A stretch of DNA of 64,000 nt from assembly GCA_041678455.1 (NCBI GenBank), contig JBAYOH010000001.1, positions 7,387 through 71,386 on the forward strand, in the 5' to 3' direction. A model generated the notes under the pieces. The model saw only the letters and a list, made by a program, of their open reading frames with translations. It ran no database searches and had not been told where the DNA came from. Both the position numbers and the translations under genes were made by a program. The stretch's first letter is position 1. Each line of letters begins with the position of its first letter. Source of the stretch: Methanofastidiosum sp. GTDB taxonomy: Archaea; Methanobacteriota_B; Thermococci; Methanofastidiosales; Methanofastidiosaceae. Positions 1 to 33,931 of this stretch are shown piece by piece.

Positions 1-536
1 TTCCCAATATTTTTTCCTTTAGATACAAAAACATGACATATTTCAATATCTTTATAGTCCCCATGTCGAATAAGTTCAAGCGATTGAGAAAGAGTTTCGA
101 GGGTTATTGCTAGTATCACCAAACGACCTTCCGATTTTAAATTAAGGCGAAGCCAATCAAATATCTCATTTAACTTTCCGCCACTCCCCCCTATCAATGC
201 CCTGTCTACACTTGGAACAGAGGATAAGCTCTCAGGTGCTACACCTTGTATAATAATAATGTTCTTTATTCCAAAGTAATTTACATTTTTTTCAATTGTA
301 CCTATCCTTTCTTTTTCCATCTCAATGGAGTATACCACTCCCTTATTTGAAATTAGTGCCGCCTCAATCGAAATTGAACCTGTGCCGGCCCCTATGTCTA
401 GGATATCACTATCCTCTTTAAGTCTTAATTTTGATAGTGCCAATACCCTGACTTCTTCCTTTGTCATTGGTGAGTTATCCTTAGAAAAATTTTCATCTGG
501 GATGCCTGCTGTTCGGAAGTTCCAATTAAATACCAT
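1..536 (-). CDS. cbiT: Cobalt-precorrin-6B C15-methyltransferase (decarboxylating) CbiT, 3'-partial; the C-terminus runs off the window start. Begins MVFNWNFRTAGIPDENF..MTKEEVR.. and carries the SAM motif DIGAGTGSISIE.
   Basis: Reverse-complement translation of 1..536 is open and matches the CbiT family (VLALSKLRL, DIGAGTGS). The ATG at 536..534 overlaps the cbiE stop by 11 nt. It is absent from the ORF track because it is partial. Confidence 0.8.
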   Translation of the reverse strand, partial: MVFNWNFRTAGIPDENFSKDNSPMTKEEVRVLALSKLRLKEDSDILDIGAGTGSISIEAALISNKGVVYSIEMEKERIGTIEKNVNYFGIKNIIIIQGVAPESLSSVPSVDRALIGGSGGKLNEIFDWLRLNLKSEGRLVILAITLETLSQSLELIRHGDYKDIEICHVFVSKGKNIG

Positions 537-1152
537 CAATTATCACCATTGCACACAATCCATTGCTTGTTATTTTTGAAATATCATAAACTGTACCAAC
601 AATAATTTTTTCATTTTTATAGGAAAGATCTTGGCCCAAGTATATTGTTTTTTCTTTAATGCCCGCATCAAGTAATATTTGGGCCACTATTTCAGGTTTC
701 ATCTTGTTATCCATTAGAACTCCAACTTTCCTATTTTTTTTAACTATATCTACTATATCAACGTCCCTACCATGAAGACTACAAAAAAACGAATCATTCC
801 AGGATTCACCTATTTTGGAGAATAGATACTGGATAGAAGATATACCGGGGATTACATCAAGCATTTCTTTATCAAAATATCTTTTTAGATACTCCAGCAT
901 CCCATAAAATCCTGGATCGCCTGAGAGTATTACAACTAATTTTTTATCAATATAATTTTTCTTTATGAAATCAATGACATCGTTCAAATTATTTTTTATG
1001 ATGAAGATTTCTTTTCCTTTGATGTCAATTGAATCCAAATTTCTTTTTCCACCAACTACGATATCTGCTTCTTTGATTTTTTTCATTCCTATGGGGATAA
1101 TATAATCAATATTTCCAGGCCCGCCCCCAACAACATATATTTTATTCATCAT
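526..1152 (-). CDS. cbiE: Cobalt-precorrin-7 C5-methyltransferase CbiE
   Basis: 208 aa. N-terminal YVVGGGPGN motif and tetrapyrrole-methylase fold signatures. Sits in the cbi operon with 4-nt overlaps to neighbours. Confidence 0.85.
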   Translation of the reverse strand: MMNKIYVVGGGPGNIDYIIPIGMKKIKEADIVVGGKRNLDSIDIKGKEIFIIKNNLNDVIDFIKKNYIDKKLVVILSGDPGFYGMLEYLKRYFDKEMLDVIPGISSIQYLFSKIGESWNDSFFCSLHGRDVDIVDIVKKNRKVGVLMDNKMKPEIVAQILLDAGIKEKTIYLGQDLSYKNEKIIVGTVYDISKITSNGLCAMVIIDGI

Positions 1153-2264
1153 ATCCCTTTGAACCCTTCTATCATGTTTTCTGCATTTTTACTCATACCC
1201 AACAAACCGTGTTTTAAGGAATATATGACGCAACTAACTTCAATTTTATTTTGTGTACGTTTAGTGCATCTTTCTGATATCTTCTCGGCCAGTATATTGA
1301 AAACATCTTTTAATCCATCCTTTAATATGTAATCAACTGCCTCTTCGGTAGTGTTACTCTCCATGATTTCTCTAATTAATCTTGTGTCACATTTAATTAA
1401 GGCACAATTTGCAGCAAGTGTTTCCATCCTCGAATCAGTTACTTTGCTGTGTGTGTTAAAGGAGCCTGATGCCACCTTTACAAGTTTACCAATATGCCCC
1501 ACTAAGAGGATTTTTCCGATACCAAATTCACAAGCTTTGTCCAGCATGTCCCCAACAAAGTTACTTATTTTTACAGAAGGTATTTTATCGAGATTTAGCT
1601 CTTTCTTTAGAAAATTAATACCATAATTTCCTGGGACAAATATAATATTTTTTTCCCCTTCCTCTTTTAGGATGGATATTTCAAGCATAATGGCTTCCTT
1701 CAGTGCCTCTTCTGACATTGGCTCTACTATCCCCGAGGTGCCAATAATAGATATACCACCAACTATTCCAAGATCCGGATTAAATGTTTTTTTTGAAACT
1801 TCTTCACCTTTTGGGACAAATATTTCTATTTTAATCCCACAATCGTTAGGTAATATCTCTGAAACTGATTCACGAATCATTTTTAACGGCACAGGATTTA
1901 TTGCATAACTACCAACAGGTATTGAAAGGCCTTTTTTAGTTACTATTCCAACTCCTTTTCCGCCTGTAATTGTAATCCCATTTTCAGCTTTTTCAACTCT
2001 TGTGCATATCTCTAATTTATTTGTGACATCCGGATCATCACCTGCGTCTTTAATAACACAACATGATACTGAATCTTTTTCTATTGTAATATTATGCACA
2101 TCTAAGAATAACTCCCATCCTTTTGGGGTTACAATTGAAACTTGATTGATCTCCTTCTTATTAAAAAGCATAAGGGCTGCAGCCTTAGACGCTGCTGCCG
2201 CACATGTACCCGTAGTGTACCCATATCTTAATTTCTTACCGTCCTTTACAATATACTTTTCCAT
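1149..2264 (-). CDS. cbiD: Cobalt-precorrin-5B C1-methyltransferase CbiD
   Basis: 371 aa. The N-terminus LRYGYTTGTCAAAASKAAA is diagnostic of CbiD. Confidence 0.9.
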   Translation of the reverse strand: MEKYIVKDGKKLRYGYTTGTCAAAASKAAALMLFNKKEINQVSIVTPKGWELFLDVHNITIEKDSVSCCVIKDAGDDPDVTNKLEICTRVEKAENGITITGGKGVGIVTKKGLSIPVGSYAINPVPLKMIRESVSEILPNDCGIKIEIFVPKGEEVSKKTFNPDLGIVGGISIIGTSGIVEPMSEEALKEAIMLEISILKEEGEKNIIFVPGNYGINFLKKELNLDKIPSVKISNFVGDMLDKACEFGIGKILLVGHIGKLVKVASGSFNTHSKVTDSRMETLAANCALIKCDTRLIREIMESNTTEEAVDYILKDGLKDVFNILAEKISERCTKRTQNKIEVSCVIYSLKHGLLGMSKNAENMIEGFKGI

Positions 2265-2277
2265 AAGAATACCTGAA

Positions 2278-2910
2278 TTATTCTATCATGTAAAGCAAGG
2301 CGTTTACTATTGCTGCACCGACTGTACTCCCGCCTTTTCGACCAAGAGTTGTTATGTATGGAACTTTAGTTTTAATCAAAGCTTCTTTTGACTCTGATGC
2401 ACCAACAAAACCAACTGGCACCCCAACGATAAGGTCAGGAGATGCTTTATTGGAATTAATTGAATCGATAAGTGTGAAAAGAGCCGTTGGTGCATTTCCA
2501 ATTACAAATATCTTTATTTTATCGTTTAGGATCGCCTTTTCCATTGCGGCCATAGATCTAGTTATACCTTTTGACCTTGATTCTTCAATAACGTCATCAT
2601 CACTTACGTAGCATAAGACCTTGCCACCAAACTTTGAGAGAATTCTTTTGTTTATCCCTTCCGAAGCCATTTTTGTATCAGTATAAATATAAGATCCTTT
2701 TTTCAGAGATTCAATAGCATTGTCAATGGCCCCTTCGCTTATCTTAGTAATACTTGTGTACTCAAAGTCGGCCGTTGTATGTATGACTCTCTTTATAACT
2801 TTACCATGGCTTTCTTCAAATTTAATATCTCCTAACTCTTTTGTAATTATTTCAAAACTCTTTCTTTCAATTTTAACAGGATCCTTTTCAAATTCAATCA
2901 TCATGTTCAA
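2278..2910 (-). CDS. cbiC: Cobalt-precorrin-8 methylmutase CbiC/CobH
   Basis: 210 aa. CbiC-family motifs (HTTADFEY, TKMASEGI, GNAPTAL). Confidence 0.9.
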   Translation of the reverse strand: MNMMIEFEKDPVKIERKSFEIITKELGDIKFEESHGKVIKRVIHTTADFEYTSITKISEGAIDNAIESLKKGSYIYTDTKMASEGINKRILSKFGGKVLCYVSDDDVIEESRSKGITRSMAAMEKAILNDKIKIFVIGNAPTALFTLIDSINSNKASPDLIVGVPVGFVGASESKEALIKTKVPYITTLGRKGGSTVGAAIVNALLYMIE

Positions 2911-3767
2911 CTCAAGCCATTGTTTAATATATCTTCAATCATTTTATAATTAAGCTCTTTTTGCGATAAATATAAAAAGTTATCAATATTTTCAATCCAG
3001 ATATTTCTGATATCCTCTGAATTACAGTTTTTATGCGAGGAAATATTTCTCATGCCTAGACTATCCTCTTCAGGGAATATAAAATTATGATGATGTAACA
3101 CGCCTAGGGTAGGTACCCCAGTTATTTTTTCAAGATACGTTGTTCCACTAGAGAGTATGGAACGTTCACCCCTAAATTTATTGATTATAAAACCTTTAAC
3201 ATATTTCTGATACTCTGTGGGTAAAAGAGAAAAAGTTCCGTACAATCCGGCGAATACTCCGCCGATGTTTATATCACCAACAACAATTACTGGAGATTTT
3301 GTAATTTCTGCCGTTTTCATATTAGCTATGTCGTATTTGGAAATATTAATCTCAACAGGTGAACCTGACCCCTCACAAATCACTATGTCGTATTTTTTTG
3401 AAAGATTTGAATAGCATTCATGTATTTCCTTTAACAATTCCCCTCTAATGTTTTCCATGTCAGATTTCTTAAAATCCCCCAATGGTTTTCCTTTAAGAAT
3501 AATTTGATATGAGCCTTTCCCCTTTGGCTTTAGCAAAATTGGATTCATATCGTACTCTGGTTCTATGTTAGAAACCCACGCTTGGAAACTCTGGGATATG
3601 CTTATTTCATGACCTTTGTCTGTGACAAAGGAGTTTAGGGATAAATTTTGAGCTTTGAATGGTGCAACTGAAAATCCTTTTTTATAAAAATACCTACAAA
3701 GCAAAGCTGTTATGATACTTTTCCCAGCTCCTGATGTTGCTGCCTGGATAATTAAGGATAAGCTCAG
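2907..3767 (-). CDS. CobQ-like paralog with the P-loop/CobQ-CobB-MinD nucleotide-binding domain only and no glutamine amidotransferase domain. The ORF track starts at TTG 3704 (MLCRYFYKK...), but the conserved P-loop (LIIQAATSGAGKS) lies in frame upstream. I propose a CTG start at 3767..3765 overlapping the cbiP stop as CTGA.
   Basis: About 45% identity to the central domain of the adjacent CbiP (ATSGAGKS, VAPFKAQNLSLNSFVT, ICEGSGSPVEINI, ANMKTAEI). The upstream frame is open from a TGA near 3840, with no ATG/GTG/TTG before 3704. GGAGGA lies 6 nt upstream of the CTG. Confidence 0.65.
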   Translation of the reverse strand: MSLSLIIQAATSGAGKSIITALLCRYFYKKGFSVAPFKAQNLSLNSFVTDKGHEISISQSFQAWVSNIEPEYDMNPILLKPKGKGSYQIILKGKPLGDFKKSDMENIRGELLKEIHECYSNLSKKYDIVICEGSGSPVEINISKYDIANMKTAEITKSPVIVVGDINIGGVFAGLYGTFSLLPTEYQKYVKGFIINKFRGERSILSSGTTYLEKITGVPTLGVLHHHNFIFPEEDSLGMRNISSHKNCNSEDIRNIWIENIDNFLYLSQKELNYKMIEDILNNGLS

Positions 3768-5596
3768 GGTGAATCCTCCAAGCCGATAGTAGTGTAAAGT
3801 TGATGCATATCTATATTTTCTTCAAAAGTTTTTGCTAGCTTTTCAAGGTTTAAATCTATTACATGATTATAGTCAAAGTATGTCTCTTCATTTGTATCGG
3901 CTATTTTCTTAGATATCAAACTTAAAAAATATTTCCTAAATGAAGGTAAATCAAATACGCCGTGTATATATGTCCCCATTACCTTGAGATTAGTATCTAT
4001 ACAACCTTCAAAATGAGTCCCATCGGCGTCGTCTATTTGAAAAATTGGCCTATTTGCATGCATTATTGTTTTACCCATGTGAATTTCATAGCCTCGTATA
4101 AAGCCATCCCCCACCCGGTATTCCTCGAGAACTTTGCCATTCACCTGCACAGTTTTTTTATCGTATAAATCAAAGTAGGTAGAAACGTCTAGAAGACCCA
4201 GGCCATCGTACTCTGCTTCTTCTTCGCCTTCTATACCTTTGTCAATAATTTTATTACCGAGCATTTGGTATCCGCCGCATATTCCAATTATGGGGATAGA
4301 GCCTGACCTTTTTTTTATTGATTCAAAGAATCCTTTTTGTTTTAACCATTTTAAATCTTCAACTGTATTTTTAGTTCCTGGGATAATAATTGCATCGACC
4401 TTCTTGACTTTTGTTGGATCATCAATAAAAATCACTGAAACATCTTTCTCCAAACCTAGTGCATCAAAATCTGTAAAATTAGATATCCTTGGAAGTTTGA
4501 TTACGCCTATTAAAATTTTTGAACTATCCATCTCTTCTGACTTTATAAACATTGAATCTTCTGTTGGAAGATTAAGCTCTATGTGTGGAACAATGCCCAA
4601 AACTGGGACACCGACTAATCTTTCAATTTCTTCTATTCCGTCATGAAGAGAAGATTTATCTCCCCTTAGATTATTTATTATTACTCCTTTGAACCGTTTC
4701 CTATCTTTATCGTGAAGTAAGTTTAATGTTCCATAGATATATGCAAAAGATCCACCCCATTCTATATTGACAACTAATATGCATGGAGCGTCTGCAATCT
4801 CTGCAGTTTTCATATTTGCTATTTCACAATCTCTTATGTTAATTTCTGCTGGACTTCCTGCTCCTTCGAGTACAACGACATCATTTAATCTTCTAAGAAA
4901 ATGGAGGTTACTCTTTGCAATTTCAAGACCTTTTGACCTTGTAAAGGAATAATACTCTTCGACGTCCATGTCTTTGTAAGGTTTCCCCTCGATTATCACT
5001 TGGGATACGTTGTCTTTTTTCGGCTTCAGCAGAATAGGGTTCATGTATGCTCTAGGTTTAATCCTTGCAGCCTTTGCTTGGAGGTCTTGGATATTTGCAA
5101 TTTCTTCTCCAAATTCAGTCACAAAGGAGTTAAGTGACATGTTCTGGGATTTGAAGGGAGCTACCTTATAATCTCTGTTTGATAGAATCCTGCACAGGGC
5201 CGCGACCGTTAAAGATTTACCTGCGCCAGAGGTTGCCCCCAATATCATGATAGTTTTGGCATATTTATGGTGTGATGTTTCAATTGTTTTTTTTATCGAG
5301 AGAATTTCATCTTTAGAACAATTAAAGTATTCATCTTTTAATAACTCAAAGCATCTCTTTGCAACATCATTTCTATGTATCCAGAAACAATCTTTGCAAC
5401 TCCACGTTTTATTTCCCTTTTTAGAGGTTATTTCTTTTCCGAGAAAGGGATCATTGCAGGGATAAAAAGGACAATAGCAAAATGTACAATCTTGACCCTC
5501 AAAGTGACATGGATAATACTCACAGGTTCTATTACTGCCAATAATCCCATTTTTAAATTGTTTTTTTACTTCTTCAGTCAAATTTTCTTGAGACAT
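3764..5596 (-). CDS. cbiP: Cobyric acid synthase CbiP/CobQ (ATPase domain plus class-I GATase domain) with an extra N-terminal Cys-rich domain of about 120 aa (CEYYPCHFEGQDCTFCYCPFYPC ... CKDC)
   Basis: 610 aa. P-loop GATSGAGKS, CobQ core, and GATase motifs IIIPGTKNT / GICGGYQMLG. The N-terminal Cys cluster resembles the small 'zf-like' Cys-rich domain seen fused to some archaeal corrin enzymes. Confidence 0.9.
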   Translation of the reverse strand: MSQENLTEEVKKQFKNGIIGSNRTCEYYPCHFEGQDCTFCYCPFYPCNDPFLGKEITSKKGNKTWSCKDCFWIHRNDVAKRCFELLKDEYFNCSKDEILSIKKTIETSHHKYAKTIMILGATSGAGKSLTVAALCRILSNRDYKVAPFKSQNMSLNSFVTEFGEEIANIQDLQAKAARIKPRAYMNPILLKPKKDNVSQVIIEGKPYKDMDVEEYYSFTRSKGLEIAKSNLHFLRRLNDVVVLEGAGSPAEINIRDCEIANMKTAEIADAPCILVVNIEWGGSFAYIYGTLNLLHDKDRKRFKGVIINNLRGDKSSLHDGIEEIERLVGVPVLGIVPHIELNLPTEDSMFIKSEEMDSSKILIGVIKLPRISNFTDFDALGLEKDVSVIFIDDPTKVKKVDAIIIPGTKNTVEDLKWLKQKGFFESIKKRSGSIPIIGICGGYQMLGNKIIDKGIEGEEEAEYDGLGLLDVSTYFDLYDKKTVQVNGKVLEEYRVGDGFIRGYEIHMGKTIMHANRPIFQIDDADGTHFEGCIDTNLKVMGTYIHGVFDLPSFRKYFLSLISKKIADTNEETYFDYNHVIDLNLEKLAKTFEENIDMHQLYTTIGLEDSP

Positions 5597-5609
5597 TTTT
5601 AACCCTAGT

Positions 5610-6965
5610 TTATTTCTTGCTATACTTTAAACAACTACCAATGAATTTTTGTGGGATCTCTGGAGATGTGGCAAAGTGGAGATGCAAATAAGAGGCAATG
5701 GTTTTTTTTGATACTAAGCCATCCTTCCCATCTTGAATGCCAACTCCTCTTTTCATCTCATATGCGAAGCTATCTTCATTTAAGCTTGAAACTCTTGAAT
5801 AGTGAAACTCGTGACCCCTGATTATATCGTTTTTTTTGGAAAGGATATTGTCCTTGGTGACCTTTACTTCTGCATAACCTAGGGCCTGTCTTCTTTCGGT
5901 CATTTCAATATCAGCGTCAAAGATTCCTACCATCTTAAAGGACTTGCCATCTAGGTTTACTAGTCTCTTGCAGAGGTACATTAGACTGCCACATTCCGCA
6001 TATATTGGAATTTCATCCTCAGATTTCCCCCTTATGGCAGACATTAAGGACTTATTAGCTTCAAGTTCTTTTGCAAATATCTCTGGATATCCCCCGCCCA
6101 TGTAAATGCCATCTACATCAGGGAGTTTTCCTGTGAGAGGGGAAAAGAATTCGATATCAGCACCATAAGATTTTAGGATTTCAAAGTTATCCCAATAATA
6201 AAAATTGAAGGCATTATCAAATGCAACTCCAATTTTAATTTTTTTGTCCTCTTTACCAAATAAGGATCTACCTGTGTACTCAAGCTCTTCGGCATTTTTT
6301 GAAATTTCAATTAATCTGTCTATGTTAACATTATCTTGGACTAAACCCTTAATTATTTCATATTTTTCTGGATTATATAACTCATCAGGAGGAACTAGGC
6401 CCAAATGTCTTGAATATAAAATTTTCTCTTTAACACGAGGTATGCCTCCAAGACACTCGACCCCTCTTAACGACTGCTTTAGATAATTTAGATGTTTATC
6501 GCTTCCAATATTATTGAATATAACTCCGGCTATGTTTACATCAGGATCATATTTCTGGAATCCCATAGCAATTGCACCAAGACTTCTGGCAGACCCTCTT
6601 GAATCTAAAACTAGAATGACCGGAGATTTTAATAATTTTGATAGGTGGGCTGTACTTCCCTTTTCATTTACACCATCTATCCCATCATAAAAACCCATTA
6701 CGCCCTCTATGACTGAAATATCCTTTTTTTCTGATGCTTTTAGAAAAATTTCTAGAATAGACTCTTCAAACATCCATGTGTCCAAATTTCGTGATTTATT
6801 TCCAGTCACGATGTTGTGATGCATTGTGTCAAGAAAATCTGGGCCCGCTTTGAAAGGCTGGACAGAAAGACCTCTTTCCTTTAATGATAGAAGTATTCCG
6901 GTTGTAATAAGAGATTTACCCACTCCACTTCGCTCGCCAGCAATTACGAAACGTGGAATTTTCAT
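5610..6965 (-). CDS. cbiA: Cobyrinate a,c-diamide synthase CbiA/CobB
   Basis: 451 aa. N-terminal GERSGVGKS P-loop and a C-terminal GATase (CGSLMYL). Confidence 0.9.
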   Translation of the reverse strand: MKIPRFVIAGERSGVGKSLITTGILLSLKERGLSVQPFKAGPDFLDTMHHNIVTGNKSRNLDTWMFEESILEIFLKASEKKDISVIEGVMGFYDGIDGVNEKGSTAHLSKLLKSPVILVLDSRGSARSLGAIAMGFQKYDPDVNIAGVIFNNIGSDKHLNYLKQSLRGVECLGGIPRVKEKILYSRHLGLVPPDELYNPEKYEIIKGLVQDNVNIDRLIEISKNAEELEYTGRSLFGKEDKKIKIGVAFDNAFNFYYWDNFEILKSYGADIEFFSPLTGKLPDVDGIYMGGGYPEIFAKELEANKSLMSAIRGKSEDEIPIYAECGSLMYLCKRLVNLDGKSFKMVGIFDADIEMTERRQALGYAEVKVTKDNILSKKNDIIRGHEFHYSRVSSLNEDSFAYEMKRGVGIQDGKDGLVSKKTIASYLHLHFATSPEIPQKFIGSCLKYSKK

Positions 6966-9504: not shown

Positions 9505-10232
9505 TGTGAAAATATCAAAAAGACAAGTATCGCTATCCTAGAAAATTCTATCCCCACACCAATCAGATCTCCATTCACAAATCCAAATTCTTTTTTAACA
9601 AATAATAGGTAAATCAACGAGAAAAGAACTAAGACTAAGAAAGATAAAATTCCTTTAATCCCAAACAACATTGAAATAACAAAGGCTAATATTAGAGAAA
9701 AAATGAATTTTGAAGGCTTCATCTCTCTTATAAAAAGGAGCCCCATCCCTTTATTTAGGGGTTTTCCTAGTCTTAAAAGAAAACAAGCACACACTCTGGA
9801 TAGAAATTCTGCTAAAAGGACATATTGAAAAATAGCAATTCTCTCAAATGACTTTATTTCATAAAATGCTGCTATGAGTAAGAATACTGTAAAAAATCCA
9901 GAAAGAATTGAACCTGTGCCTATGAATCTATCCTTCATTATCTCTGCCCTTCTACTTTTATCTCTAACAAAAAGGGCATCACCCATATCAACTGCGCCAT
10001 CGATATGATGAAATCCTTCTAATAACAAAATAAAAAAGACACTCAAAATTGAAAAAAATATTCTTGACGGGAGGTATGACAATAAATACACTATTGATGC
10101 AGAGATTAATCCAATAATTAAACCTACCAATGGGTATAGAAAAGCGCCTTTAGCTGCACCTTCTATTGTTCTGTTGCTTCCTAAAGGTAAAATTGATGAA
10201 AACGCAAGAAGGTCAAGGAAATTTCTAATCAT
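9492..10232 (-). CDS. cobS: Adenosylcobinamide-GDP ribazoletransferase (cobalamin synthase) CobS
   Basis: 246 aa polytopic membrane protein. HHIDGAVDMGDALF matches the CobS DGxxDxxD motif. Confidence 0.85.
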   Translation of the reverse strand: MIRNFLDLLAFSSILPLGSNRTIEGAAKGAFLYPLVGLIIGLISASIVYLLSYLPSRIFFSILSVFFILLLEGFHHIDGAVDMGDALFVRDKSRRAEIMKDRFIGTGSILSGFFTVFLLIAAFYEIKSFERIAIFQYVLLAEFLSRVCACFLLRLGKPLNKGMGLLFIREMKPSKFIFSLILAFVISMLFGIKGILSFLVLVLFSLIYLLFVKKEFGFVNGDLIGVGIEFSRIAILVFLIFSQWFL

Positions 10233-11344
10233 CTATTTATCCCCTGAAATATTTTTGATGAAATTCCTGCAATGAGCCCGCCCAAAGCATCGTCCATAAA
10301 TGGTCCAAGCCCACCTATTATACCAGGTTTAATCCTTTCAACTCTTCTAAACTCAAATATCCCCCTATACCCTCCAATATATGATGCTATTGCGTCCCCT
10401 ATGGCTTCGTCAGCGATTAAATGAATGGGATCTTTTTCAAACTCACTTTTTGGAAGTCCTGGAATTATCCCTCTATATCCATCTTCCTCTGCTCTCAAAC
10501 CTGCAATAATAAGTGAAGAAACGTTAGGCTCCTTAAGATAGTATTCAAGTTCATTTTGGAATAATGACTTGAACTCATCTCTAGTTATATCATCATTGTC
10601 AATGAAAAGCTCCATTTCTGCTTTTATGATATCTTCTAAAAAAATACCCCTCTCCTTAAGCCTAGATGCCAAACTTCTCTGAGGATTATTTTTATCATAT
10701 ATTACCAGAGAATTATAAACTCCTTCATATACAAGTTCCCCTAGTGTTTTCCCTATTTTCGTTCCAGTTGACATGTACCTTTCTTTTTTGCCATTTCCAG
10801 TTGATGCAATTAAAGCGGAATCTGTAGTTGTACCTGTAGCATTTCTGTAAGAATTAACGCTTCTTATGTCAAGATCAAGTAGCGCCCGGGTCTTAGCTTC
10901 AGTCATTGTTATAATCCCCCCTACATACGCCTCTTCCTCTAAATTGGCATCTATTATTGCATAGATATTTATTGTGCAGGGTGTTAAAACAGAAGTTATT
11001 TCACCTGCTAAGGAAGCATTAGAAACACCTGCAGTAAGAAAAACTAAAACATTATTTTCTTCTTTGATAAATAAGTTCTTTACATCACATGCTGTCATCA
11101 TTCCAACTGAATCTATTGATCCTATTTTCTTTTCTACTTGCTGAAGATCTTTTTCAGGATTTTCAGAAATATAGTTTTTTTCTACTTTTTTCCCAATAAG
11201 TGTTCTGGTAAATTTCTTGCCCCCTCCAAGGATTGCAGAGCTATATGCCTTAAGGGATTCATCTGACTCAACTACAAAGAAATCATCATAAATTCTAAGT
11301 TTTACTTTGCCAGAAAGAAAACTCTTTTCCTTCAATATTTTCAT
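10229..11344 (-). CDS. cbiZ: Fusion of CbiZ (adenosylcobinamide amidohydrolase, N-terminal ~220 aa) with a PgpA-like domain (CobZ-type alpha-ribazole-phosphate phosphatase, C-terminal ~150 aa)
   Basis: N-terminal CbiZ motifs: SSAILGGG, LTAGVSNAS, ATGTTTDSAL. C-terminal PgpA-like motifs: FRRVERIKPGIIGGLGPFMDDALGGLIAG. CbiZ-CobZ fusions are known from Methanosarcina. Confidence 0.65.
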   Translation of the reverse strand: MKILKEKSFLSGKVKLRIYDDFFVVESDESLKAYSSAILGGGKKFTRTLIGKKVEKNYISENPEKDLQQVEKKIGSIDSVGMMTACDVKNLFIKEENNVLVFLTAGVSNASLAGEITSVLTPCTINIYAIIDANLEEEAYVGGIITMTEAKTRALLDLDIRSVNSYRNATGTTTDSALIASTGNGKKERYMSTGTKIGKTLGELVYEGVYNSLVIYDKNNPQRSLASRLKERGIFLEDIIKAEMELFIDNDDITRDEFKSLFQNELEYYLKEPNVSSLIIAGLRAEEDGYRGIIPGLPKSEFEKDPIHLIADEAIGDAIASYIGGYRGIFEFRRVERIKPGIIGGLGPFMDDALGGLIAGISSKIFQGINR

Positions 11345-12288
11345 GTGAATCCTCCAACTTTAAGTGGTAGTGGCAATAGGTATATTATAATTAAAACTAA
11401 TGCAAATGATACTATAGTTGATAGGAAATACAATTTTAAAGCCTTTCTCACTATTAGTGTATCTTCAAAATCAATCCCATCACCTAGGACATAATAGCCC
11501 TTCTTTTCAAGTTTAACGCCGAATATTCCAGCATATAGGGACATTATATGGCCGGAGTTTGGACTTTCAGTTGTATTATGGTATTTTCGGTAGGTTTCAA
11601 ATGATCTTTTTAAAGGATAGTTAAAAATCAAAGAACAGAATAAGGTAATTAAAACGCCAATTCGTGAAGGAATAAAATTTAAAACATCGTCAAATCTTGC
11701 TGAAATTTTTCCAAATAAAATATACCTCTCATTTTTATACCCAATCATTGAGTCAAGTGTATTTACAGCCCTAAATACTAGGCACCCATAAAACCCAAAT
11801 ATCATGAAAAAAAAGAGTGGGGATACAATGCTGTCAATAAATGATTCTCCAATACATTCAAGATTTCCTGATAGGATATGATATCTGTCAAGCTTTTTTG
11901 TATCTCTTGAAACGATGAAAGAAAGATACTTTCTAGCACCGTCTAAATCATTTTTTTCCATTGGAGTAATTATTCTCTTTGTAGCCCTTCCCATCTCATT
12001 TATTGAAAAGGTACTTTTTAAGATAAATACGGCTATTGGGAAGAAAATATAGATTGGAGCATAGATATAGATCAAATTCAGGACAAATCCTATTGATAAT
12101 GCAATTAGAACTGTAAAAAATGTAAGAAGGCCACCCATCAGAATAGAGTTTTTCCAAAATTTTTTCTCAAAGTAGCTGATAAATTTTCCAAATAATATCG
12201 TTGGGTGGATAAAAAGTGGCTTTTCTCCAATGATAAAATCATAAATAAGTGCTGAAATGATAATTGCAGCAAGTATCAATTTATCCAT
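11341..12288 (-). CDS. cbiB: Adenosylcobinamide-phosphate synthase CbiB (membrane protein)
   Basis: 315 aa. CbiB/CobD membrane-family signatures; sits in the operon. Confidence 0.85.
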   Translation of the reverse strand: MDKLILAAIIISALIYDFIIGEKPLFIHPTILFGKFISYFEKKFWKNSILMGGLLTFFTVLIALSIGFVLNLIYIYAPIYIFFPIAVFILKSTFSINEMGRATKRIITPMEKNDLDGARKYLSFIVSRDTKKLDRYHILSGNLECIGESFIDSIVSPLFFFMIFGFYGCLVFRAVNTLDSMIGYKNERYILFGKISARFDDVLNFIPSRIGVLITLFCSLIFNYPLKRSFETYRKYHNTTESPNSGHIMSLYAGIFGVKLEKKGYYVLGDGIDFEDTLIVRKALKLYFLSTIVSFALVLIIIYLLPLPLKVGGFT

Positions 12289-24765: not shown

Positions 24766-27375
24766 CTACCCTTTTACGCCCTGGGCGAAGTCATCTCTTC
24801 CTCCACCTTTGCCGTACTTCTTAATTACATTGCAGGCTTTGTGTCCACTTTCTATGGCTATCTTCCCGCAAGATACAACTATGTTGCCCTCGTTATTGGT
24901 CAATACGATTATCTTGTTGTCTCCTGAAAGCTCCTTTGCAATTTTTCTCATTTCATCAGGTGATGTATCCACATTTTCTTCCAAAAATAGTATCCCATCA
25001 GATTCTACGTAATTGCATTCGAGCCCTTCTTTCTTAAGGCAAGATATTTCAGCTTTGAGTCTTTCAATCTCTTTTCCCCTGTTTTTCCACTCATTGAAAA
25101 ATCTCTTTCCGGTGTCAAGGAGTTTGTCTTTTTCTACCTTAAAGACATCTGATAAATCTCTTAAGAGCATGGATTCTTCCTGAATTGCCTCAAGCGCTTT
25201 AAGTCCGGCGCAGAATTCAAGCCTAACAACCCCATCTTGAATCTTGCTCTGCTTTAAAATCTTGATAGGCCCTATCTGTCCAGTGAAATCTGCATGAGTT
25301 CCTCCGCACGCTTCCACATCAAGCCCTTTGACATTGACAACCCTGATTTTCTTTCCAGGAACCGCACCGCCTTGGTATAGCCTAAATCCATACTTTTTTT
25401 CCGCTTCAGCCCTTGGGAAAAAGCCTTTATCTATTGGGAGATTTTTCAGGACTAGTTCATTGGAAATTTTTTCAATCTTGAATAGATCTTCGTTGTTAAT
25501 CAGTTTGTAGTGAGTTATATCAAGCCTTGCTTTTTCTTCAGTCTTTTCTGCACCTGCCTGCCATATGTGATTCCCTAATATCTGTCTGCTAACGCCATTT
25601 ATGATGTGAGTTGCTGTATGATGCCTTGTCAGATTTAATCTTCTTTCCTTATCGACAACACCTCTTACAGTGTCGCCTTTCTTGAAATTGATTTTTTCCA
25701 TGATGTGCAAAATTACATTCCCAGAAACTTCAGTATATGAAACAGGGCAGTTGTTTATCAGTCCTCTGTCTCCCTCTTGGCCTCCACTTTCAGGATAAAA
25801 TGCAGTCTTATCAAGTATGGCAATATTGTCTTTAATATCAAGCACCTTGGCAGAGAATTCTGTTATCCCCTCGTAATAGAGCCTCTCAGTGTCTGGCATG
25901 TCGTAGTGGATTTCTTTTTCGCTTAGTACTGAGTCTTTCTTTTCGTGCCTTTCAGTTACCCTTTTGTAAAAGTCCTTGGGCGGCTTTACCCCCATAACTT
26001 CTGGAGTAATGCCATGTGAATCATATAACTCGATTAGTTTATCTTCAGATAGCTCTTCTCCTTTTTCATTTAGCCTTTCAATTATCCTTCTTGACTTATC
26101 TTTTGTATTTTCAAACTTCTCCATTTCATAGGAAATGATTTCACAGATATCGCTAATATTCTCTCTGAGTTCAGGGTACTGAGGCTTGAGATATTTTGCG
26201 TGCTCCTCGATGACTTTCTGAAGTTCAATATCCCAAGAGAATCTCTCTATGAAAGACAAGACCCTCCTTAAAATTACTCTTAGATTGTATCCGCCACCGA
26301 CATTAGAAGGCAGGGCGCCGTCAGAAAGAGCAAATAATAATGATCTAGAATGGTCCCCTATAGAATATATCGCCTGAAGAGGTAAGACTTGTTGCTTCAA
26401 ATACTCTTTGTCAGTGGAAAGATTTTTTGCAATAGCATCCCATACTTTTTCAATGTCTTCTACCTCGTCCATGTTCAACATTCCAGAATATGGTATGAAT
26501 CCCTTCAAAAATGACTTATCAGGGGTTATGCCTGTCCGCCTGTAAAGATGGTCGCAAACAGTCGGGAAGACCGTCTCGTAACCAATTGGATTAGCAAGGG
26601 AAAACCAGGAAAATCTCTCCTGTCCCGCACCCATATCGAGCACCTTCAAGTCAAGCTCTTTTCCGCCAGAAGGTGTTACTTCGTACTCAATGTAAACTTG
26701 ATTTCCTAGCTCTAAACCTCTAGAGAAAAATTCCATGCACGGACCAAAATTCCCTCCGCCTGCCCAAGCATCTTCGTGAAATATGAGCTCCTCAGAAGGT
26801 ATGCCAAGACCGATCTTTAACCAGTCATAAATGTCAGAGAGAAACCTGTCTTGAGAGAACTCTTTTGGTGGGAAAAAGGCATGCTGGCCTATCATTACAA
26901 AACCGGTGTAGTGTCTTAATGTGACGCCGACATTGTCAATATCATTGAATCTTACGCAAAACTGTGGTACCAACAAAGGATTTGCAGGTGGTTCTTGCGT
27001 CCCTTTCACTACATGAGGTTGGAAATCATAAATTGACGCCTGGACAAAGTCTGTGTCATCCCGCCATCTCGCTACAACTGGGTACCTTTTGATTATAGAA
27101 TACCCCTTCTTCTCAAAGAGAGAAGACATCTCCTTCCAAACTTGTATAAAGTCAAGTTTTTTCTTTGCAGGGGAGTTTTCTATAAACGAATAACCTCCTT
27201 CGCATTCAGGATCCCCACAAATGTCTCTATCTTTTACAGACCAGAAATAGGTGCCGCATTTTTTACACTCTTTTCTAATAAAACCAAGTGATTTTAACGT
27301 ATCAACTGCATAATACTTTTGATAATTTTGACTTGCTTTTTTCTTGAAATCTTTTTTTAGCGCTCTATCGTCCAT
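24766..27375 (-). CDS. alaS: Alanyl-tRNA synthetase (archaeal type)
   Basis: 869 aa. Archaeal AlaRS N-terminus (KKCGTYFWS...), HTATHI editing-domain motif and C-terminal DHHA1-like GGGRDDFAQG. Confidence 0.95.
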   Translation of the reverse strand: MDDRALKKDFKKKASQNYQKYYAVDTLKSLGFIRKECKKCGTYFWSVKDRDICGDPECEGGYSFIENSPAKKKLDFIQVWKEMSSLFEKKGYSIIKRYPVVARWRDDTDFVQASIYDFQPHVVKGTQEPPANPLLVPQFCVRFNDIDNVGVTLRHYTGFVMIGQHAFFPPKEFSQDRFLSDIYDWLKIGLGIPSEELIFHEDAWAGGGNFGPCMEFFSRGLELGNQVYIEYEVTPSGGKELDLKVLDMGAGQERFSWFSLANPIGYETVFPTVCDHLYRRTGITPDKSFLKGFIPYSGMLNMDEVEDIEKVWDAIAKNLSTDKEYLKQQVLPLQAIYSIGDHSRSLLFALSDGALPSNVGGGYNLRVILRRVLSFIERFSWDIELQKVIEEHAKYLKPQYPELRENISDICEIISYEMEKFENTKDKSRRIIERLNEKGEELSEDKLIELYDSHGITPEVMGVKPPKDFYKRVTERHEKKDSVLSEKEIHYDMPDTERLYYEGITEFSAKVLDIKDNIAILDKTAFYPESGGQEGDRGLINNCPVSYTEVSGNVILHIMEKINFKKGDTVRGVVDKERRLNLTRHHTATHIINGVSRQILGNHIWQAGAEKTEEKARLDITHYKLINNEDLFKIEKISNELVLKNLPIDKGFFPRAEAEKKYGFRLYQGGAVPGKKIRVVNVKGLDVEACGGTHADFTGQIGPIKILKQSKIQDGVVRLEFCAGLKALEAIQEESMLLRDLSDVFKVEKDKLLDTGKRFFNEWKNRGKEIERLKAEISCLKKEGLECNYVESDGILFLEENVDTSPDEMRKIAKELSGDNKIIVLTNNEGNIVVSCGKIAIESGHKACNVIKKYGKGGGRDDFAQGVKG

Positions 27376-33783: not shown

Positions 33784-33931
33784 AATTATTTTATTTTATA
33801 CTTTTCTTATAGTATATATTTTTACTCAAGTTACGAGGGTATATTTAAAATAGCCAAATATCTTAAAAACAGCAAACAACTACTATATTTGGAAATTAAA
33901 TAACGACTAAATATTTAAGAGAGTGAAGTAG

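Follow-up and report, generated by a model that had tools for sequence, protein, structure and literature searches.

The stretch of DNA analysed here, which we refer to as the window, comprises 64,000 nucleotides (nt) of a Methanofastidiosum contig (JBAYOH010000001.1, assembly GCA_041678455.1) and carries a cobalamin gene cluster in which two cobQ genes lie side by side on the minus strand. Our subject is the start of the second of these genes, a short cobQ paralog whose conserved N-terminus is reached from a CTG at the stop codon of the long cobQ gene. Coordinates of the paralog refer to the minus strand of the window, and its residues and codons are numbered from this CTG as 1 (Table 1). The long gene encodes a protein with a Cys-rich, zf-like N-terminus (PF04071) followed by synthetase (PF01656/PF13500) and GATase_3 (PF07685) domains, which matches the cobyric acid synthase model from end to end. 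The paralog comprises the CobQ synthetase (DTBS-like P-loop) domain alone (PF01656, E = 1.5e-15). Position 2 of the NF001989 model falls on residue 4, the match extends over model positions 2–262 of 480 with E = 2.5e-95 and 319.9 bits (cut-off 273), and the protein stops at model position 262 with no match to the glutaminase domain PF07685. The score against TIGR00313 was 300.6, under the cut-off of 309.9. The paralog resembles CobQ/CbiP in a synthetase domain that is 45% identical to that of its long neighbor and in scoring above the NF001989 cut-off, but it differs, as far as can be told from sequence, in being a stand-alone protein of ~280 amino acids (aa) that has no glutamine amidotransferase domain and in having Asn in place of an invariant acidic residue.

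The 3′ end of the long gene reads ...TCA CCC TGA, with the TGA at 3766..3764, and the CTG, which is in the −1 frame relative to the long gene, overlaps this stop codon to form a CTGA junction at 3767..3764. A GGAGGA, which resembles a Shine–Dalgarno (SD) sequence, lies inside the 3′ end of the long gene and is followed by the 6-nt spacer TTCACC and then the CTG. This arrangement, first described in a sequence-only reading of the window, can be read directly from the DNA. From the CTG, the frame continues CTG AGC TTA TCC TTA ATT ATC CAG GCA GCA ACA TCA GGA GCT GGG AAA AGT..., translated LSLSLIIQAATSGAGKS, and the open frame around the junction encodes T-LSLSLIIQAATSGAGKSIITA, including the Walker A motif, exactly as that reading had it; upstream, the frame is closed by an in-frame TGA at 3824..3822 and not, as had been given, near 3840. 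The first in-frame ATG, GTG or TTG is the TTG at 3704..3702, which confirms that no canonical start precedes the P-loop, and the P-loop is included in the product only if translation begins at or near the CTG. The C of the CTG is the third base of a Pro codon of the long gene, CCC here and CCA in relatives, and the difference is synonymous there, as had been proposed. The NF001989 alignment and the P-loop G-K, which was present in 119 of 119 homologs examined, indicate that the N-terminal extension is homologous and not a chance open stretch. The same count disposes of the suggestion that the paralog is universally P-loop-less and truly starts at the TTG.

Table 1. Features of the cobQ junction and of the cofE start in the window.
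Feature	Position	Strand	Remarks
Long cobQ gene, 610 aa	3764..5596	-	PF04071, PF01656/PF13500, PF07685; NF001989 563.9 bits
SD-like GGAGGA	3774..3779	-	Identical in all 29 Methanofastidiosum-type sequences compared, window included
CTG at ancestral ATG position	3765..3767	-	Overlaps TGA of long gene
Short cobQ paralog, 286 codons, open reading frame intact	2907..3767	-	NF001989 positions 2–262 of 480
P-loop/Walker A ATSGAGKS, residues 10–17	3717..3740	-	Upstream of every canonical start; G15 and K16 invariant in 119/119 homologs
Codon 6, ATT (Ile)	3750..3752	-	ATG in all sister lineages; only nearby fallback ATG gone
TTG codon 22, first canonical start	3702..3704	-	Used as start by some gene finders (265-aa product); no SD
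Codon 167, AAC (Asn), motif GDI-N-IGG	3267..3269	-	GAC/GAT (Asp) in sisters; column D or E in 119/119 homologs
In-frame TGA bounding paralog frame upstream	3822..3824	-	
cofE (F420-0:L-glutamate ligase), 249 codons	33932..34681	+	CTG ATA directly after in-frame TAG 33929..33931

In a database search with the paralog, most of the 120 best hits were 276–296 aa long, contained PF01656/PF13500 only and came from Methanofastidiosa, Methanomassiliicoccales and other archaea. The gene order cbiA, zf-cobQ, short cobQ is the same in M. luminyensis (L098), in L099 (57% identity) and in L100. The M. luminyensis junction consists of GGAGG followed by a GTGA overlap, which shows that the coupled junction is old; the start in L099 is ATG. 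In length, in synthetase-only content and in its position directly after cbiA and the zf-like cobQ, the paralog fits the archaeal stand-alone short CobQ type. Judged by this conserved synteny across archaeal orders, short cobQ is an old, conserved stand-alone gene that follows the zf-like cobQ in Methanofastidiosum and Methanomassiliicoccus, and not a recent duplicate. Of the earlier proposal that the paralog is a pseudogenised duplicate, the recent duplication is thereby removed, while the pseudogene is considered below. We found no experimental work on short CobQ in the literature. We propose, with low confidence, that it most likely acts in amidating corrinoid carboxylates, whether in partnership with long CobQ or with free ammonia, since it is a glutaminase-less synthetase domain that is conserved next to long CobQ and predicted to be coupled to it.

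The nearest genome, a Methanofastidiosum metagenome-assembled genome (MAG; L001), showed 91% amino-acid identity. Across the sister lineages, represented by 22 loci (L001, L070–L073 and L081–L096), the junction is GGAGGA-TTC(A/G)CC-ATG-A with the same 6-nt spacer, and the encoded N-termini fall into three protein variants, MSLSLMVQ, MSVSLMIQ and MSLSLMIQ. (L073 was ignored, with 0.74x coverage and many frameshifts.) The window and seven other loci (L074–L080) form a CTG lineage with the junction GGAGGA-TTCACC-CTG-A. Since all sister lineages have ATG, the CTG is derived by an A-to-C change, and the earlier conjecture of a recent point mutation holds when the orthologous junctions are compared. 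The CTG copies differ from the window by 0–1 nt over 3.2–6.8 kb and thus represent one young, widespread clone. A DNA pattern scan of metagenomes for the junction yielded one locus (L096), which has ATG, and no further CTG lineage.

Before relatives were compared, the simplest guess for a one-base difference from ATG was an error of sequencing or assembly, or else a minor allele present in one assembly. However, the identical C recurs in the other seven loci, which derive from at least six independent samples (GCA_034003205.1, equivalent to a contig of JGI 3300044603; ERZ27247376; ERZ27247346; ERZ925065; SRR25572339; SRR8449813) and through different pipelines (NCBI, JGI, ENA and Logan); L074 and L076 are the same contig. 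An artefact is refuted at the assembly level, and we give it practically no credence. The A-to-C start substitution is real and derived. It had been proposed that a non-canonical start would be refuted if orthologs had ATG, GTG or TTG and only this assembly carried the deviating base. The first half applies, with ATG in the orthologs, but the C recurs in other assemblies. The NCBI records MDX9797481.1 and MFA7689478.1 are the exact 286-aa product of the paralog, with Met at the CTG position, whereas the ENA and JGI pipelines called the paralog as a fragment of 265 aa (from the TTG) or 213 aa (from an ATG).

The contig shared by L074 and L076, JAVEZA010000013.1, is one base off the window and lies in MAG GCA_034003205.1, which is labelled as a Bacteroidales bacterium (MDX9797481.1, MDX9797482.1); this placement is probably a binning contaminant. 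Comparison of 526..6965 (minus strand) of the window with L081, L091, L001 and L070 showed a mosaic of lineage relationships. In short cobQ, the window shares 98% identity with the L081/L091 lineages, whereas cbiD, cbiE and cbiA are 95–97% identical to the L001/L070 lineage and, relative to L081/L091, 88–90% (cbiD, cbiE) and ~96% (cbiA) identical. This pattern suggests recombination inside the cluster.

With the ATG replaced, the CTG is the best-placed initiator left, and to that extent the view that it was the only plausible one is upheld. Codon 6, an ATT, is 21 nt away from the SD, and the TTG at 3704 and the ATG at codon 74 have no SD and would give products without the GK[ST] P-loop, which would therefore not be active amidoligases. 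A post-termination ribosome might nevertheless start at the ATT (3752..3750), or translation might begin at the TTG or at ATG codon 74. In E. coli, ATT belongs with CUG in one class of near-cognate codons (bioRxiv 10.1101/063800). Some thaumarchaeal CobQ genes apparently begin at the equivalent of Met6, and the 265-aa and 213-aa products are the ones given by the ENA and JGI callers. Given the spacing and the loss of the P-loop, we regard a start at any of these three codons as improbable. Ten thaumarchaeal CobQ loci (L004, L005, L011, L021, L023, L029, L042, L053, L057 and L061) encode Ile (ATH) at the position of the first Met in related Nitrosopumilus genes, and the only canonical start left to them is a conserved ATG five codons before the P-loop motif; either their N-terminus would be shorter or they would start at the ATH codon.

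The overlap also raises the possibility that a −1 ribosomal slip at A-CCC-UGA fuses long CobQ to the short protein. The frame of the paralog is −1 to that of the long gene, CCC would re-pair better there than CCA, the ancestral codon, and slippage might be favored by a stop codon in the A-site. However, a slippery heptamer is absent, no homolog of ~900 aa was found among the 120 best hits, and RNA folding of the junction (3730..3815, minus strand) revealed no significant downstream structure, the stem being no more stable than shuffled controls (z = 0.7). We consider such a fusion very improbable. In this weak stem, the SD-containing GCUUGGAGGAU is paired with AUCC...AUCCAGGC further downstream. 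The SD is sequestered in the folds of all lineages; the whole stem was predicted in the window and in L081, and only its outer part in L001. Rfam and tRNA scans of the window found no RNA genes.

All long open frames of the window were scanned for conserved N-termini that lack a canonical start, and one gene besides the paralog was flagged, cofE. The start region of this gene reads, from 33923 on the plus strand, GTG AAG TAG CTG ATA GAC GAG ATA AGA ATA ATC CCT..., and the full product with Met at the CTG begins (M)IDEIRIIPVLDVPLIK. Position 1 of TIGR01916 falls on residue 5 counted from the CTG, while the first canonical start is the GTG at codon 88. The configuration GTG-AAR-TAG-CTG-ATA is common to the window, Ca. 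M. methylothiophilum (L101, GCA_001587715.1; ~1262..2019) and GCA_039679445.1 (L102; 1492..2250). Between diverged Methanofastidiosum lineages, the ratio of non-synonymous to synonymous divergence (pN/pS) over the 76 codons that precede any canonical start was 0.16–0.17 at pS 0.44–0.58; such strong purifying selection on the N-terminus indicates that the region has been translated for a long time. An SD-like GTGA is located 5 nt upstream of the CTG, a spacing typical of GGTGA sites in the window. In the NCBI records, cofE products have Met at the CTG as their first residue; other pipelines call cofE as 161–172-aa fragments, and for many further populations cofE is known only from truncated 172-aa calls.

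The simplest reading of these data is that cofE initiates at the CUG or the adjacent AUA, and non-canonical initiation at one of these codons appears to be genuine in Methanofastidiosum. Like the paralog, cofE has a CTG directly by a stop codon, an SD-like sequence shortly upstream, no canonical start before conserved residues and an NCBI product with Met at the CTG. It differs in that its configuration is common to diverged lineages under purifying selection, as expected of an established start, and in having the ATA at codon 2 as an alternative initiator. Read-through of the UAG with pyrrolysine is unlikely: about eight genes of the window end in TAG, and the position of the TAG is Q, K or Y in relatives, as for unconstrained sequence. 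The long open upstream extensions of the genes at 27361, 42955 and 59762 were rejected as further cases, the family models beginning after the canonical start in each.

Elsewhere in the cluster, cbiE, cbiD and cbiC lie downstream of the cobQ pair and a cbiA/cfbB-like gene lies upstream; the other genes are cobA, cobT, a cobY-like gene, cobS, cbiZ, cbiB, a gene for a cobD-like aminotransferase and an ECF transporter. Corrinoid salvage is represented by CbiZ, CbiB, CobS and the ECF transporter. The CbiA/CobB homolog (5610..6965, minus strand) scored 505.8 bits against the cobyrinic acid a,c-diamide synthase model and 514.1 bits against the F430 CfbB model (below the cut-off of 560), and may function in the corrinoid pathway as well as in that of F430. 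The cbiZ-like gene (10229..11344, minus strand) encodes a fusion of a CbiZ (adenosylcobinamide amidohydrolase) domain with a PgpA-like domain at the C-terminus, and its ATG overlaps the cbiB stop as ATGA. The 13-nt string TTGGAGGATTCAC occurs at 3769..3781 before the CTG of the paralog and at 11345..11357 before the cbiZ-like ATG, both on the minus strand, which makes the two coupled junctions of the cluster near-identical.

Changes on the branch of the clone were polarised against the two closest sister lineages and outgroups. The paralog has acquired three non-synonymous changes (M1L at the start codon, M6I from ATG to ATT, and D167N from GAC to AAC) and five synonymous ones. Position 6 is M in 83, L in 20 and I in 16 of the 119 homologs; M6I is thus not damaging as an amino-acid change and matters mainly as the loss of the only nearby fallback ATG. 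Residue 167 is the acidic residue of the GDI[DE]xGGVFA motif, which is D in all sisters. No solved structure was close enough by sequence to place D167, and literature searches revealed no role for the residue. Whole-gene pN/pS was 0.08–0.13 between the window lineage and its sisters, 0.12 between sisters and 0.16–0.18 against the outgroup, pointing to purifying selection in the species group. (The rows for the long cobQ against L001 were discarded, being misaligned by a 3-nt indel.)

These changes are also those expected of a young pseudogene, in which the loss of the ATG silenced short cobQ, or in which D167N had inactivated the gene earlier and made the loss of its start neutral. The clone would then live on long CobQ, which adjoins the paralog, and on corrinoid salvage, and the open reading frame would look intact only because the event is recent. 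All three non-synonymous changes on this short branch hit the start codon, the next ATG or a position occupied by an acidic residue in all 119 homologs, so that expression signals and a putatively essential residue have been lost, while CUG initiation in E. coli reaches only ~1–2% of AUG, with a range of 0.02–3% (Hecht et al., bioRxiv 10.1101/063800). On the other hand, none of the eight CTG sequences, including that of the window, has a frameshift or a premature stop, and pN/pS is not raised, although both tests have low power because the clone is so young. Three or fewer non-synonymous changes out of eight would occur with a probability of ~0.03 under full neutrality (binomial estimate). The SD, the spacing and the overlap are untouched, and cofE is apparently expressed from a near-cognate start in the same genus. 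As in known start-codon-loss pseudogenes, one substitution has destroyed the ATG in one lineage while the sisters are intact, but the paralog differs from them in having no further lesions and in keeping its ribosome-binding context. We consider a young pseudogene a serious possibility that falls somewhat short of even.

Several further observations weigh against translation from the CUG. The CTG is not conserved, being confined to a single near-clonal lineage that is too young, at 0–1 nt of difference, for decay to have become visible. All of the ~70 other CobQ-type start regions examined keep a canonical start no more than 10 codons before the P-loop motif. Both observations also speak for the young pseudogene. 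M6I and D167N together look like relaxed constraint. At cofE the initiator could be the ATA rather than the CTG. A review of archaeal initiation names AUG, GUG and UUG only (PMC7531240), and we found no experimentally validated CUG start in archaea in the literature.

Two known phenomena provide a framework for the junction. Overlapping gene pairs are strictly coupled in Haloferax volcanii and E. coli, where the terminating ribosome goes on to translate the downstream gene, usually with the assistance of an SD (Huber et al. 2019, PMC6728339). The cobQ pair is like these ATGA/GTGA termination–reinitiation pairs in being co-directional, in its 4-nt overlap, in the SD that the upstream gene carries at its 3′ end, and in a junction that is conserved between orders and of a type usual for subunit pairs. 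It is unlike them in that the restart codon is CUG, compared to AUG in the published pairs, and in that the coupling is predicted from sequence. The second is initiation at near-cognate codons (CUG, AUU, AUC and AUA) in bacteria (bioRxiv 10.1101/063800), which the paralog resembles in having an optimally spaced SD followed by CUG, with Met expected as the first residue, as in the deposited NCBI products. In contrast to those cases, however, the CTG of the paralog is newly derived, and the host is an archaeon with aIF1, aIF1A and aIF2 and not IF3, so bacterial efficiencies may not apply. Ribosome profiling of H. volcanii placed ~30% of putative alternative initiation sites at near-cognate codons, but these were set aside (PMC7261190). 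The paralog has no canonical start before its essential residues and an SD at working distance; conservation of the start under purifying selection is seen at cofE, in three lineages, and not at the paralog, which has ATG in the other lineages.

We favor, though with no better than even confidence, weak CUG initiation at the paralog, guided by the SD or coupled to termination, that gives the full-length protein. In one clone, the A of the ATGA has mutated to C, a silent change from CCA to CCC for the long gene that turned the start of the short gene into CTG. Ribosomes that end the long gene at the UGA, 30S subunits held by the GGAGGA 6 nt upstream, or both, would start at the near-cognate CUG. 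Initiator Met-tRNA at this codon would yield MSLSLIIQAATSGAGKS..., with the N-terminal peptide (M)SLSLIIQAATSGAGK, and the short protein would still be made at a much lower level. Weak initiation or reinitiation at the CUG seems most likely because the SD, spacing and overlap are kept, the 286-codon reading frame is intact, no usable canonical start is left, and cofE provides a precedent in a genus that appears to maintain a near-cognate start (CTG or adjacent ATA) in that gene. We infer that CUG is used at the paralog junction, that paralog output is reduced, and that the product with D167N is still active. A lower output could be tolerable via the salvage route of CbiZ, CbiB, CobS and the ECF transporter. 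More tentatively, and with rather more doubt than belief, Methanofastidiosum might routinely tolerate CUG initiation, with the cofE start kept across diverged lineages and the paralog representing a fresh, viable switch from ATG to CTG that perhaps tunes expression down, initiation at termination sites being permissive.

Near-cognate starts and coupled overlaps are both already known, and the NCBI products already begin at the CTG of the paralog. Taken alone, the paralog is a modest result, a start-codon mutation in a single clone, with a gene that is either weakly translated from the CTG or starting to die. There is a practical consequence for annotation: gene finders restricted to ATG, GTG and TTG output P-loop-less paralog fragments of 265 or 213 aa and cofE fragments of 161 to 172 aa, whereas NCBI records hold the full-length products, and metabolic reconstructions of Methanofastidiosum can consequently differ by pipeline. 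With one conserved non-canonical start and one new CTG start, both at stop codons, the genus offers a natural test case for near-cognate initiation and termination–reinitiation in archaea. If Methanofastidiosum does routinely tolerate CUG initiation, these genes would provide the first comparative evidence of functional CUG starts in Archaea, and would hint that reinitiation next to a stop codon relaxes start-codon stringency.

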